Notes under the pieces: model-generated
Databases searched by the model: none
Seen by the model: only the letters and a program-made list of their open reading frames with translations
What the model was told of the DNA's origin: nothing
Program-made: the position numbers and the translations under genes
NCBI RefSeq assembly: GCF_006345805.1
Contig: NC_043015.1
Coordinates: 43,896,001-43,960,000, forward strand
DNA length: 64,000 nt
Source of the DNA: Octopus sinensis
Taxonomy: Eukaryota
Direction of reading: 5' to 3'
Part shown: positions 7,864-14,455 of the stretch, one piece after another
Layout of the letters: every line of letters starts with the position of its first letter
Numbering within the stretch: the stretch's first letter is position 1

Positions 7864-8904
7864 TATATATATATATATATACATATGTATGTATATATTT
7901 ACATCTCTCTATCTATCAAGGGATCTATTAATCACTGTCTATCTTTCTAGGTTTAAGTAAAACCCTAGAAGGCAGCGCGCCAATTATACAATGCTGCAAA
8001 ACATTCAAATGATATACTAAAATAATATAATAATATATACGGATTAGTGTGTGCGGCGCACGCGTGTGTGTGTGTGACACTGTGCCTGTGTCTGACTATT
8101 TGTGGCTACCGTTTGGTTATGTGTGTATATGTGTGTGAGTGTCTGTGCATGTTTGCTATATATGTGCATCGTCAGCCTCTCTCTCTCTCCCTTTCTGTAC
8201 GTTTACTCTGTGTATCTGTCTCTCTGTGTCGGCCTCTCTATGTGTGTGTCTATCACTTTGAGCGTCTGTTTCTGTGGGTTTTTAACCTATATATATATTT
8301 ACTTTTGTGTGTGTATATGCACGCCCGTCTGCCTTTCCCGCTTGTCTGTCTGTCTGTCTGCCTGTCTGTCTGTATTCTTGTTTGTTTCGTATGACCGACC
8401 TCGTCGGAAATATTCTTAAGTTTACTCGAAATAATTATACATTGCTTTTTGTTTTTTCCTACTTATTGATTGACATATCAATTGTCTCCATAGGCGATCA
8501 CGGTTTGTTTTGACAGGACCGTAGTTCTTAGGGCAAGAGTGGATCAAGTTCGCGATCTTATTATTGTGTGACCAACATTCTTTCTGTAAATATATTTAAT
8601 AAGAAATTCCTTTACTGCAAATCTAGAGATATCCTCTTAATTAATTCATACATTCTATATTGTGCTGCATTAAACACCGACGTACACACACACACGCACA
8701 CACACACGCGCGCGCACACACACATGCGCGGACTCACACATGCGCGGACACACACATGCGTGGACACACACATGCGTGCACATATCGGCATACTTTTGTG
8801 TAGGGGTTAGCAGGGGTATCCGGCTTACAAAAACGTGGTGTTTGTATGGCATAGGCATTGTTATCAAATTCTTCTTACTTCTTCCACTATATATATATAT
8901 ACAT

Positions 8905-11900
8905 ATATCACAATCAAGGAACGGCCATAATAGGCCATTCACCCACTAGAAATAACAGCCAAAAAGCTTCAACCGCAAAATAACATTAATTCCGTAAACC
9001 AGGAGAAAATTAAAAAACATTTACCCTGAAATTCCTTATACGATGCACCGTTTATTCTACTGTTTAATGGTAAACTAACCTGATTAAATTAAATCAAGCC
9101 AATCTACCATAGGCCCTTAGATTCATCAGTAAGGAATAGCCAAATCGAAACAGATATTTTTCACGAGGCATTCTCGTCCATGCCTCGCCAATATCTGGAC
9201 CTAAAATTTTCAAATCGTCGCACTCGCGCCAAATTTATCGGCAGCAAATAATATAAGCCGCCGATTCCATTACGGAACCAACCAGAAAATTCATAATTAA
9301 TCAATATAGACAGGAGGCAAAAAAATTTTGTAGAATTCTTTTGCCCCCAGCGGCCTAGTGGGAAAAAATTAAATAGTCATAAACCATTTTTAAGTTCAAT
9401 ATCACAATCAAGGAACGGCCATAATAGGCCATTCACCACTAGAAATAACAGCCAAAAAGCTTCAACCGCAAAATAACATTATTCCGTAAACCAGAGAGAA
9501 AATTAAAAAACATTTACCCTGAAATTCCTTATACGATGCACCGTTTCTTCTACTGTTTAATGGTAAACTACCTGATAAATTAATCAAGCCAATCTACCAT
9601 AGGCCCTTAGATTCATCAGTAAGGAATAGCCAAATCGGAACAGATATTTTTCACGAGGCATTCTCGTCCATGCCTCGCCAATATCTGACCTAAAATTTTT
9701 TCAATCGTCGCACTCGCGCCAAATTTATCGGCAGCAAATAAATATAAGCCGCCGATTCCATTACGGAACCAACCAGAAAATTCATAATTAATCAATATAG
9801 GGAGGCAAAAAATTTGTTAGAATTCTTTTGCCCCCAGCGGCCTAGTGGGAACAAATTATTAAATAGTCATAAACCATTTTTAAGTTCATATCACAATCAA
9901 GGAACGGCCAAATAGGCCATTCACCCACTAGAAATAACAGCCAAAAAGCTTCAACCGCAAAATAACATTAATTCCGTAAACCAGGAGAAAATTAAAAAAC
10001 ATTTACCCTGAAATTCCTTATACGATGCACCGTTTCTTCTAACTGTTAATGGTAAACTAACCTGATTAAATTAAATCAAGCCAATCTACCATAGGCCTTA
10101 GATTCATCAGTAAGAATAGCCAATCGGAACAGATATTTTTCACGAGGCATTCTCGTCCATGCCTCGCCAATATCTGACCTAAAATTTTCAAATCGTCGCA
10201 CTCGCGCAAAATTTAATTTTCTCCTGGTTTACGGAATTATGTTATTTTGGGTGAAAGCTTTTTGGCTGTTATTTCTAGTGGGTGAAGGGCCTATTATGGC
10301 CGTTCTTGATTGTGATATTGAACTTAAAAATGGTTTTTAGACTATTTAATTTTTTCCCACTAGGCCGCTGGGGGCAAAAGAATTCTACAAAATTTTTTTG
10401 CCTCCCTATATTGATTAATTATGACTTTTCTGGTTGGTTCCGTAATGAATCGGCGGCTTATATTTATTTGCTGCCGATAAATTGGCGCGAGTGCGACGAT
10501 TTGAAAATTTTAGGTCAGATATTGGCGAGGCATGGACGAGAATGCCTCGTGAAAAAAATATCTGTCCGATGGCTATTCCTTACTGATGAATCTAGGGCCT
10601 ATGGTAGATTGGCTTGATTTAATTTAATCAGGTTAGTTTACCATTAAACAGTAGAAGAAACGGTGCATCGTATAAGGAATTTCAGGGTAAATGTTTTTAT
10701 AATTTTCTCCTGGTTTACGAATTAATGTTATTGCGGTTGTTGTTAAGCTTTTTGGCTGTTATTTCTAGTGGGTGAATGGCCTATTATGGCCGTTCCTTGA
10801 TTGTGATATTGAACTTAAAAATGGTTTATGATATTTAATTTTTTCCCACTAGGCCGCTGGGGGCAAAGAACTTCTACAAAAATTTTTTTGCCTCCCTATA
10901 TTGATTAATTAGAATTTTCTGGTTGGTTCGTACTGGAATCGGCGGCTTATATTATTTGGCTGCCGATAAATTTGGGCGGCGAGTGCGACGATTTGAAAAT
11001 TTTAGGTCAGATATTGGCGAGGCATGGACGAGAATGCCTCGTGAAAAATATCTGTTCCGATTTGGCTATTCCTACTGATGAATCTAAGGGCCTATGGTAG
11101 ATTGGCTTGATTTAATTTAATCAGGTTAGTTTACCATTAACAGTAGAAGAAACGGTGCATCGTATAAGGAATTTCAGGGTAAATGTTTTTTAATTTTCTC
11201 CTGGTTACGAATTAATGTTATTTTGCGGTTGAAGCTTTTTGGCTGTTATTTCTAGTGGGTGAATGGCCTATTATGGCCGTTCCTTGATTGTGATATTGAA
11301 CTTAAAAATGGTTTATGACTATTTAATTTTTTTCCACTAGGCCGCGGGGCAAAAGAATTCTACAAAATTTTTTTGCCTCCCTATAATTGATTAATTATGA
11401 ATTTTCTGGTTGGTTCCGTAATGGAATCAGCGGCTTATATTATTTGCTGCCGATAAATTTGGCGCGAGTGCGGGACGATTTGAAAATTTTAGGTCAGATA
11501 TTGGCGAGGCATGGACGAGAATGCCTCGTGAAAAATATCTGTTCCGATTTGGCTATTCCTTACTGATGAATCTAAGGGCCTTGGTAGATTGGCTTGATTT
11601 AATTTAATCAGGTTGTTTTTACCATAAACAGTAGAAGAAACGGTGCATCGTATAAGGAATTTCAGGGTAAATGTTTTTTAATTTTCTCCTGGTTTACGGA
11701 ATTAATGTTATTTTGCGGTGGTTGAAGCTTTTGGCTGTATTTCTAGTGGGTGAATGGCCTATTATGGCCGTTCCTTGATTGTGATATTGAACTTAAAATG
11801 GTTTATGACTATTTAATTTTTTCCCAAGCCGCTGGGGGCAAAAGAATTCTACAAAATTTTTTTGCCTCCCTATATTGATTAATTATGAATTTTCTGGTTG

Positions 11901-13837
11901 GTTCCGTAATGAATCGGCGGCTTATATTTATTTGCTGCCGATAAATTTGGCGCGAGTGCGACGATTTGAAAATTTTAGGTCAGATATTGGCGAGGCATGG
12001 ACGAGAATGCCTCGTGAAAAATATCTGTTCCGATTGGCTATTCCTTACTGATGAATCTAGGGCCTATGGTAGATTGGCTTGATTTATTTTAATCAGGTTA
12101 GTTTACCATTAAACAGTAGAAGACCGGGCATCGTATAAGGAATTTCAGGGTAAATGTTTTTTCATTTTCTCCTGGTTTACGGAATTAATGTTATTTTGCG
12201 GTTGAAGCTTTTGGCTGTTATTTCTAGTGGGTGAATGGCCTATTATGGCCGTTCCTTGATTGTGATATTGAACTTAAAAATGGTTTATGACTATTTATTT
12301 TTTCCCACTAGGGCCGAGGGGGCAAAAGAATTCTACAAAATTTTTTTGCCTCCCTATATTGATTAATTATGAATTTTCTGGTTGGTTCCGTAATGGAATC
12401 GGCGGCTTATATTTATTTGCTGCCGATAAATTTGGCGCGAGTGCGACGATTTGAAAATTTTAGGTCAGATATTGGCGAGGCATGGACGAGAATGCCTCGT
12501 GAAAAATATCTGTTCCGATTTGGCTATTCCTTACTGATGAATCTAAGGGCCTATGGTAGATTGGCTTGATTTTAATTAATCAGGTTAGTTTACCATTAAA
12601 CAGTAGAAGAAGAAACGGTGCATCGTATAAGGAATTTCAGGGTAAATGTTTTTTAATTTTCTCTCATGGTTTACGGATTAAGTGTTATTTTTGCGGTTGA
12701 AGTTTGCTTTGGCTGTTATTTCTAGTGGGTGAATGGCCTATTATGGCCGTTCCTGATTGTGTGATATTGAACTTAAAATGGTTTATGACTATTTAATTTT
12801 TTCCCACTAGGCCGCTGGGGGCAAAAGAATTCTACAAAATTTTGTTTGCCTCCCTATATTGATTAATTATGAATTTTCTGGTTGGTTCCGTAATGGATCG
12901 GCGGCTTATATTTTGCTGCCGATAAATTTGGCGCGAGTGCGACGATTTGAAAATTTTAGGTCAGATATTGGCGAGGCATGGACGAGAATGCCTCGTGAAA
13001 AATATCTGTTCCGATTTGGCTATTCCTTACTGATGAATCTAAGGGCCTATGGGAGATTGGCTTGATTTAATTTAATCAGGTTAGTTTACCATTAAACAGT
13101 AGAAGAACGGTGCATCGTATAAGGAATTTCAGGGTAAATGTTTTTTAATTTTCTCCTGGTTACGGATTAATGTTATTTTGCGGTTGAAGCTTTTTGGCTG
13201 TTATTTCTAGTGGGTGAATGCCTATTATGGCCGTTCCTTGATTGTGATATTGAACTTAAAAATGGTTTATTTATGACTATTTTTTTTCCCACTAGGCCGC
13301 TGGGGGCAAAGACTTCTACAAAATTTTTTTGCCTCCCTATATTGATTAATTGAATTTTCTGGTTGGTTCCGTAATGGAATCGGCGGCTTATATTTATTTG
13401 CTGCCGAATAAATTTGGCGCGAGTGCGACGATTTGAAAATTTTAGGTCAGATATTGGCGAGGCATGGACGAGAATGCCTCGTGAAAAATATCTGTTCCGA
13501 TTTGGCTATTCCTACTGATGAATCTAAGGGCCTATGGTTTAGATGCTTGATTTAATTTAATCAGTTAGTTTTACCATTAAACAGTAGAAGAACGGTGCAT
13601 CGTATAAGGAATTTCAGGGTAAATGTTTTTTATTTTCTCCTGGTTTACGGAATTAATGTTATTTTGCGGTTGAAGGCTTTTTGGCTGTTATTTCTAGTGG
13701 GTGAATGGCCTATTATGGCCGTTCCTTGATTGTGATATTGAACCTTAAAAATGGTTTATGACTATTAATTTTCCCACTAGGCCGCTGGGGGCAAAAGAAT
13801 TCTACAAAATTTTTTTGCCTCCCTATATTGATTTAAT
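8905..13837. mobile_element. Retrozyme-like tandem array 1: ~10 copies of a ~490-bp hammerhead-containing unit with an internal inversion
   Basis: ATCACAATCAAGG recurs at 8907, 9401 and 9890. Orientation flips at ~10213 (~2.7 copies left, ~7.4 right). One hammerhead motif per unit; (TA)n on both sides. The repeat is certain; the retrozyme call is inference. Confidence 0.85.
10575..10680 (+). ncRNA. Type I hammerhead ribozyme motif (representative of array 1)
   Basis: ATTCCTTA-CTGATGA-ATCTA..TAGAA-GAA-ACG GTGCAT CGT-A^TAAGGAAT. Other + cores at ~11075, 11563, 12048 (damaged), 12534, 13030 and 13515. Minus-strand copies at ~9031-9137, ~9523-9627 and ~10013-10117. Confidence 0.85.
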
Positions 13838-13902
13838 ATATACATATATATACATTGTACAATAATGTGTATGTATATGTAATAATATATCTATATATAT
13901 TA

Positions 13903-13955
<53 letters not shown>

Positions 13956-14032
13956 ACATATATATAATATATAATATATATATATATTATATATATATAT
14001 ATATAATTATATATATGTAAATATATATACAA

Positions 14033-14455
14033 GGCGCAGTAGTGGCTGTGTGGTAAGTAGCTTGCTTACGAGTCACATGGTTCCAGGTTCAGTCCCACTG
14101 CGTGGCACCTTGGGCAACTGTCTTCTACTATAGCCTCGGGCCGACCAAAGCCTTGTGAGTGGATTTGGTAGACGGAAACTGAAAGAAGCCCGTCGTATAT
14201 ATGTATATGTATATATATGTATGTATATATATGTATGTGTGTATATGTTTGTGTGTCCGTGTTTGTCCCCACAACATCGCTTGACAATCGATGCTGGTGT
14301 GTTCCCGTCCCCGTAACTTAGCGGTTCGGCAAAAGAGACCGATAGAATAAGTACTAGGCTTACAAAGAATAAGTCCTGGAGTCGATTTTTTCGACTAAAG
14401 GTGGTGCTCCAGCATGGCCGCAGTCAAATGACTGAAACAAGTAAAAGAGTAAAAG
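14033..14455 (+). mobile_element. SINE family A, full length (tRNA-like head, internal TA/TG microsatellite, GTAAAAGA tail)
   Basis: TGGCTGTGTGG A-box-like and GGTTCAGTCC B-box-like; about 16 copies in the window. Confidence 0.92.

Follow-up and report, generated by a model that had tools for sequence, protein, structure and literature searches.

Animal retrozymes are non-coding tandem units of low GC content that carry a type I hammerhead motif and lie in dispersed arrays (Cervera and de la Pena 2020, PMC7229834; Li, Clavereau and Pollet, the 2026 preprint bioRxiv 10.64898/2026.07.22.740005). The subject of the present paper is a pair of such arrays, A and B, in a stretch of 64,000 nucleotides from Octopus sinensis (NCBI RefSeq assembly GCF_006345805.1, contig NC_043015.1, positions 43,896,001 to 43,960,000 of the forward strand; this whole stretch is called the window below), together with their relatives elsewhere in that genome of 2.72 Gb. 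Judged by their sequence, A and B are animal non-LTR (non-long terminal repeat) retrozymes with a 491-bp unit bearing a type I hammerhead motif. Their insertions almost always pair two fixed start sites, one on each side, and we consider it about 65% probable that these hammerhead-bearing tandem retroelements are non-autonomous and owe their insertion, in trans, to an endonuclease-bearing reverse transcriptase (RT) of the Penelope-like elements (PLEs) working on a circle of a single monomer.

For other animal retrozymes, cutting to monomers and circularisation have been demonstrated, and it was proposed that circles template tandem cDNA with PLEs as likely helpers (PMC7229834); the preprint ties retrozymes to the pseudo-LTRs (pLTRs) of PLEs by co-occurrence and phylogeny, and discusses the birth of satellites via local growth by unequal crossover. 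Mobilisation of retrozymes by PLEs via circles is so far a proposal from co-occurrence and sequence kinship (the same two sources), while the Architeuthis genome paper (PMC6962438), so far as its accessible text goes, counts hammerheads only. Units here (491-535 bp) may be compared with 170-400 nt in PMC7229834 and lie within the 51-972 bp of the preprint; in the text consulted, neither source describes arms that are inverted, end registers that are fixed, or (TA)n as a target. A literature search with most subscription papers outside its scope found no PLE insertion signature on animal retrozyme arrays, no rule of one site per strand, no tails of more than 100 nt and no insertion-site analysis for animal retrozymes; it also found no evidence of a single-monomer origin of both arms, the supplements of the retrozyme papers, which could bear on this, lying outside its scope.

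Endonuclease-bearing PLEs typically leave an inverted, 5'-truncated copy, with a tail of 30-40 bp that is often present at one end only and a bias towards (TA)n (PMC8557442, PMC3846280). Purified PLE protein, for which a dimeric form is predicted, nicks both strands of AT-rich DNA and extends them; reverse transcription begins at two internal positions of the RNA, which are not homologous to each other and which delimit the tail seen in genomic copies (PMC11167929). The mechanism of inverted, tailed insertion is described as unresolved in PMC8557442 and PMC11167929; self-priming on an antisense template was proposed in PMC3846280, a model that is not needed here given the scattered, non-palindromic junctions. 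The arrays share with these elements the head-to-head inverted copy, the extension confined to one end, AT-rich or (TA)n targets, short duplications, and the two internal RT start sites with both strands extended (PMC11167929). They differ in apparently lacking an open reading frame (ORF), in start sites that are 103-130 nt apart rather than 30-40, in arms that are both multi-unit, and in a pairing that is nearly strict, whereas the published descriptions consulted call the tail optional and give no count of pairs. Chlamys derivatives such as MRC1 (PMC8557442) are likewise non-autonomous passengers with multicopy head-to-tail insertions, but most Chlamys elements are described there as lacking canonical hammerheads, whereas the motif is present here. 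Element class and architecture are thus each already known; what goes beyond the first-pass annotation of the window, which was made from its letters, is the rule of one S1 end plus one S2 end (see below), the target duplication, and the identification of the two start sites with the PLE "tail".

Paired outer ends

From the matches listed by two genome searches, 39 A loci and 34 B loci were fetched (for A, the best 40 of the candidates were scored and 150 of 326 matches listed; for B, the best 35 and 150 of 283), which gave 77 insertions once the two arrays of the window and two additional insertions at locus L094 were included. First-look candidates genome-wide numbered 1233 for the A query, 828 for B and 734 for a third family, C; these are not copy numbers, and those of A and B may overlap. 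Registers within the unit are counted from the first base 3' of the predicted hammerhead cut.

With a threshold of 60 nt for an arm, 58 of the 77 insertions are two-armed and 19 one-armed, and in all 58 of the former the 3' ends of the hammerhead strand point outward, giving the head-to-head inversion known from PLE insertions. The outer ends of A peak at register 134 (35 ends) and at 237 (24), those of B at 131 (22) and again at 237 (16). The windows defining the two end classes, S1 (117-137) and S2 (224-246), were drawn after the data had been seen; S2, about 103 nt downstream of S1, is a cluster, mainly of 234, 237 and 241, whose members end in AT. Among distinct two-armed insertions 55/57 pair one S1 end with one S2 end (p=1e-14, binomial against the 50% of free choice), so that the claim that end registers are fixed and not random, previously made from two arrays, now has a tabulated sample behind it. 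The count was 55/57 for insertions not at a locus edge; L075 (edge-cut, and found to be S1+S2) was then added, and L098 dropped as a duplicate of L097. Two alternative 3' ends, with a "tail" at one end, are accordingly seen in 55/57 A/B insertions, and also in 11/11 of family C. The S1 side is the left in 27 and the right in 28 two-armed insertions.

Both arms exceed one unit in 43/55 two-armed insertions and two units in 25/55, and arms reach up to 13.5 units; their lengths are negatively correlated (rho -0.28, p 0.04), which may be a sampling bias. Of the complete one-armed insertions (n=18, read by eye), four are S1 arrays with a short S2 stub at the far end, and two adjoin unrelated sequence.

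As a separate observation, S1 and S2 come out as more unpaired than average in predicted circular ensembles (0.75-0.82 vs 0.38-0.40 in A and B; 0.51-0.56 vs 0.34 in C). At L094, related units have been inserted at three different places within a span of 8 kb, and one of these insertions is short and diverged. L097 and L098 (contig C27, 42 kb apart) have identical registers, and another pair alike in registers or offsets lies at C6:12735724 and 12762357; these pairs may be segmental duplications or redundant assembly.

Target sites

An alternating TA run of at least 8 nt lies within 30 nt on both sides in 53/55 two-armed A/B insertions, the background being 596/8481 random 30-mers. Exact flank repeats that contain G or C occur in 14/84 insertions (shuffled mean 1.9, maximum 5 in 60 shuffles); 13 of these 14 are 13-17 bp long, and they are visible where the TA run is impure. 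An AT-rich or microsatellite target with a short duplication is what PLE insertions show, and the direct duplication, together with antisense sequence 3' of each flank strand, would fit staggered nicks whose 3' ends each prime cDNA on hammerhead-sense RNA. The Penelope-like character at which the earlier annotation had hinted from the inverted termini can now be based on inverted arms, fixed paired ends, (TA)n targets and short duplications taken together.

One part of that earlier proposal has to be given up, namely that nicked (TA)n selects the sites by annealing to the RNA, because longer or equal TA-like words in the unit are practically unused as outer ends (TATAT ending at 226 and 279 in A, and ATAT ending at 339 and 376, with a single outer end at 226), and because S1 of family C ends in TTTT, with at most 1 nt of TA match. 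Terminal AT may still fine-tune the base used within S2.

Inner junctions

Of the inner junctions scored (n=56), 34 are free of inserted bases, one is complex, and the other 21 contain unmatched bases, 1-20 in number. Mean overlap at the 34 insert-free junctions is 2.47 nt, against 0.70 at random; of the unmatched bases some are errors beside the joint and some look templated. Inner registers are scattered, those of the two arms falling within 10 nt of one another in only 5/54 junctions, which rules out fold-back self-priming as a general cause. Inner ends at the start register of the other arm number 7/54, where chance would give 8.6. Twin-primed reverse transcription, as suggested in the first-pass annotation, survives in the sense of priming from both nicked target strands, but its classical L1 form on linear RNA is not supported.

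Inner ends do fall preferentially in registers 1-27, just downstream of the cut (23/128, expected 7; 0/2000 simulations reach 23), which may mean that copying stalls at the ribozyme or runs off an end left by cleavage. Secondary clusters at 205-232 and 285-310 (15 and 14 of the 128 ends, against about 7 expected) were singled out post hoc and amount to hints only. Short-read contigs covering the unit come from runs X1 and X4 (one sample), X6, and X11 (another organism), their depth not being a copy number; among those listed there are 13 joints in which a minus arm meets a plus arm, each at other registers and with a short side of only 21-27 nt (92% likeness), which gives modest support to the inverted junctions being real DNA.

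Homogeneity of the units

Units within an insertion are very alike: 284 singleton substitutions were counted in 223,894 aligned bases, indels ignored, and unit distances are 0.27/0.28% within arms and 0.17/0.28% across arms, against 1.10/0.97% between insertions. Every array-level variant testable in both arms occurs in both (131/131). There are 23 private fixed variants, each in every unit of just one of 74 arrays ("private" being relative to the sampled arrays), and 19/74 arrays carry such variants; 15 of the 23 span both arms and all units in arrays of at least four units (13 arrays). The 16-mer across the cleavage site is exact in 246/263 and 211/230 cases, like other positions, which disposes of imprecise end-to-end template jumping on linear monomers.

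This homogeneity within and across arms, the seamless joints and the multi-unit arms are most simply explained by repeated copying of a single monomer, and the data suggest that a single event produced each array from a small RNA, probably circular, in place of growth at the site itself. A multimeric or circular template, as had been surmised from the window arrays, is thus supported by unit homogeneity and seamless joints, and the view that unequal crossing-over is not the main origin holds on the strength of the ends, their pairing, the duplications and the unit distances.

A third family

Family C has a 535-bp unit with a type I hammerhead whose loop III is AATT, and shares 239 identical columns of 562 with A. 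It was first met at L138:5770-6859 (C6, about 12735263-12736360), inserted beside a PLE. Ten further compact arrays were chosen by size, mostly by hits on both strands and not by their ends; the copies (L138, L148-L157) are about 99% alike. In 11/11 arrays one outer end is at 161 and the other at 287-291, a distance of 130 nt. At six ends (five of S1, one of S2) the aligner overran into the TA run; these were read by eye, and the S1 end of L148 is bounded only to 161-185. A 256-nt probe for counting C ends by coordinates returned almost only full-length hits and was uninformative.

The unit and its hammerhead motif

The unit is 491 bp long in both subfamilies, the A and B consensuses being 89% identical, and units stand head to tail with periods of 485-492 and a GC content of about 37%, as in animal non-LTR retrozymes; matches are dispersed over many contigs. 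Each unit combines an 8-bp stem I, the core (CTGATGA in some, CTGAAGA in others), a stem II that is long, GAAAC, and a short stem III whose loop is palindromic; GTA stands before the predicted cut. Stem I is ATTCCTTA/TAAGGAAT in subfamily A, where the stem III loop is TGCA (as in the example at 12526..12635), and ATTTCTTG/CAAGAAAT in subfamily B, the changes relative to A being compensated. Core, stem I of 7-8 bp, GTA or GTC triplet and palindromic loop III, as expected of type I hammerheads, are present in A, B and C. Activity of the hammerhead is presumed from this motif, and the predicted folds do not favour the active form.

Some related observations may be added here. A sub-lineage of A (L035, L042, L045, L047, L048, L051, L053, L059) has the triplet changed from GTA to GTC, plus two other fixed changes. 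Two more hammerhead-like motifs, unmatched by the A/B/C profile, lie in other (TA)n-flanked inserts (L146:4655-4760 and L138:5525-5625) and are possibly further retrozyme families. Run X6, guessed to be RNA, has 22 contigs on the unit, which reveal no ends, strand or circles. Related units are present in runs X3, X10 and X11 (organisms B and C), and since X11 also contains an inversion joint, the system is not confined to this species.

Candidate enzymes

When the best 150 of 5029 first-look candidates for the GIY-YIG endonuclease domain were scored, at least 147 matches were listed. Two families have frames of 775-781 codons that combine an RT with a C-terminal GIY-YIG domain, one of them with a C-x4-C-x2-C linker, which is the Neptune/Nematis layout according to PMC8557442. 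That family, an abundant one, likewise ends in (TA)n; of six copies, five share a single end site and the sixth extends about 38 nt beyond it. The two alternative 3' ends can be seen at L139:5180-5230 and L140:639-690, the extension holding a small palindrome, and their spacing implies that a classical PLE tail exists in this genome. In L140 (674-2110 and 2032-4374), and also in L141, an upstream frame of 479 codons, without a Pfam hit, overlaps the RT frame, whose ATG in L140 is at 2080, directly behind a TTTTTTA run; this family might have two ORFs or use a frameshift. Reading the untranslated ends of the PLEs by eye showed no stretch resembling S1 or S2, and the two window insertions contain no RT plus GIY-YIG ORF, unit sequence covering both from end to end.

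How the arrays may have been inserted

In the scheme proposed here, arrays would be transcribed, the hammerhead would cut the transcripts to monomers, and these would be closed to circles. Staggered nicks about 13-16 bp apart in a (TA)n run, as the target duplications and the orientation of the arms suggest, would leave a 3'-OH on each flank; reverse transcription would begin at S1 from one of these and at S2, at a distance of 103 nt (130 nt in C), from the other, in keeping with the pairing observed, and both might be held in a complex with two active sites. Each RT would then copy the same monomer repeatedly, a circle being the presumed template for the seamless, homogeneous multi-unit arms that are seen. 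The cDNAs would end at differing positions, many of them shortly downstream of the cut, and their joining, for which the microhomology observed points to an end-joining pathway, would create the inversion. Of the components of this scheme, two-site priming of the PLE type is very likely, and if it is accepted then a circular template is the probable one. A more specific version, for which the chances appear even, is that a dimeric PLE RT-endonuclease grips one ribozyme-made circle at two fixed sites and primes both cut strands of the (TA)n target at once, both active sites rolling along that circle with strand displacement; an inverted satellite array of several kilobases would then be born in one event, and the PLE tail and the inverted termini would be the two halves of one obligatory two-site reaction.

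It is also conceivable, if unlikely, that the same two-site priming acts on a long linear read-through transcript of a homogeneous parent array, with the hammerhead idle or only making the 5' end. A multimer of this kind would likewise yield seamless unit joints, the clustering of inner ends just downstream of the cleavage site, the chief argument for a linear template, is more easily obtained from a linear 5' end than from an intact circle, and in vitro the main substrate was unprocessed RNA, hammerhead cleavage being dispensable (PMC11167929). Against this, private variants (in 19/74 arrays) would need a one-unit bottleneck to become fixed in all units of both arms, inner ends are not in excess at the other arm's start register, and arrays copied only from linear transcripts could not be expected to lengthen. 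Insertion of a monomer or dimer by a PLE, with the arms then growing locally by unequal crossing-over or slippage, would equally predict array-private variants in all units, and six arrays do have a variant common to adjacent units; but each of the two inverted arms of these very young arrays would need to have grown independently, in most cases beyond one unit and often beyond two. Since, in addition, likeness between units is no lower across arms than within an arm, and partly shared variants number 20 against 284 singletons, this origin must be thought improbable.

L1 twin priming also gives inversion, junction microhomology and duplications of 13-17 bp; in it, the first primer is placed at the poly(A) end, the second site is variable, and the inner end of the first arm lies at the second priming site. 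The likeness is that two target 3' ends prime one transcript and that the inversion is joined by microhomology, and a long interspersed element (LINE) with an AP- or REL-type endonuclease, nicked (TA)n annealing at AT-rich spots in the manner of L1, might be invoked because the outer ends often finish in AT. However, both sites here are fixed and internal, each is used once, the arms overlap in template sequence, and the element has no poly(A) or simple-repeat tail of its own; with better TA matches unused, at most 1 nt of match at S1 of C, and inner ends unrelated to the other start, we consider a LINE origin very improbable. Lastly, the inversions might be artefacts of long-read assembly (fold-back chimeras), since the arrays carry many indel errors and the window junction at 10213 is spanned by no short-read contig among those listed. 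This we find scarcely credible: flanks differ yet share a direct duplication, the ends are asymmetric by rule, inner registers are nearly symmetric in only 5/54 junctions, and the short-read contigs listed from two organisms include the 13 joints described above.

Several further points must be set against insertion by a PLE enzyme on a monomer circle. Three insertions depart from the pairing rule: L053 has ends at 237 and 84; L051 has ends at 129 and 134, the former followed by 10 nt matching registers 232-241, so that it may be read as an S2 end carrying a deletion; and L040 is an S2 array (237) with a 44-nt second arm ending near 319. The sample is skewed to young, long arrays, because it was drawn from the best-scoring matches, and many of the singletons, among which transversions outnumber transitions (165 to 117), are probably assembly errors. 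Of variants common to some units of an array there are 20 (6 shared by adjacent units), from which it follows that units are to some extent duplicated or converted locally. A single molecule and a pair of sister RNAs made at the same parent locus would be indistinguishable. As for the ribozyme, the first pair of stem II is mismatched in subfamily A; Rfam gives nothing at gathering scores across the window, nor at E up to 5 on 12400-12800, for which the long stem II is possibly the cause; and in predicted minimum-energy folds the core is paired elsewhere in A and stem I is omitted in B. The tail of the autonomous family is about 38 nt, not 103-130, in the one family examined. Finally, MRC1-type Chlamys derivatives resemble their autonomous partner at the 3' end (PMC8557442), whereas comparison of units A, B and C with 43 PLE-bearing loci, taken from the 5029 first-look GIY-YIG candidates (blastn, nhmmer), returned only the inserted family C array and weak AT-rich matches.

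If the proposed scheme is right, its value lies in young arrays recording each reaction: one start site per target strand, the length of the stagger, the stop points and the identity of the template. For the in vitro PLE assay that already exists, the arrays offer a ready RNA to serve as substrate, along with exact predictions. They also suggest a possible way for satellite arrays to come into being complete, and genome engineers would take an interest in an RT able to copy a circular RNA into the two strands at a nick.

The two arrays in the window

Coordinates for both arrays are collected in Table 1. As noted in the first-pass annotation, A and B share one architecture, (TA)n runs flanking both, with the arms inverted and the hammerhead-sense strand reading outward in both. 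Their left outer ends are indeed homologous when the units are aligned (134 in A corresponding to 131 in B). The right ends, which had been taken to be the same, are close but not identical (about 231-234 in A, with one extra T, and 241 in B).

Table 1 Features of arrays A and B as they stand in the assembly; positions are those of the window.
Feature	Position	Strand	Remarks
Left (TA)n target, array A	8888..8908	.	Holds left copy of candidate 14-bp target duplication ATATATACATATAT (8895-8908)
Array A left arm, 2.67 units of 491-bp retrozyme unit	8905..10215	-	Outer end S1 (register 134)
Array A inversion junction	10212..10215	.	Registers about 294 and 25; about 4 nt (TTTA) common to both arms
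Array A right arm, about 7.4 units	10212..13837	+	Outer end S2 (register about 231-234)
Example type I hammerhead motif	12526..12635	+	Predicted cleavage after GTA at 12627
Right (TA)n target, array A	13836..14029	.	Starts with right copy of candidate duplication (13836-13849)
Left (TA)n target, array B	48503..48678	.	
Array B left arm, 2.22 units of subfamily B	48679..49768	-	Outer end S1 (register 131), inner end register 18
Array B inversion junction	49766..49768	.	3-nt overlap ATT; registers 18 and 7, just downstream of cleavage site
Array B right arm, 2.51 units	49766..50995	+	Outer end S2 (register 241)
Right (TA)n target, array B	50994..51068	.	

The inner end of the left arm of array A is at register about 294, and one mismatch lies beside the TTTA overlap at its junction. 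Reckoned as 10212-13833, the right arm of A comprises 7.38 units. The 14-mer proposed as its target duplication is present twice more within the right TA run, so that the left copy alone is weak evidence.

The same repeat, resembling a short interspersed element (SINE), lies to the right of both arrays (14030-14200 and 51171-51334), which is probably chance, since there are about 14 matches to it within the window. Several arrays elsewhere (L037, L048, L055) are located in the (TA)n run that ends this SINE-like repeat.

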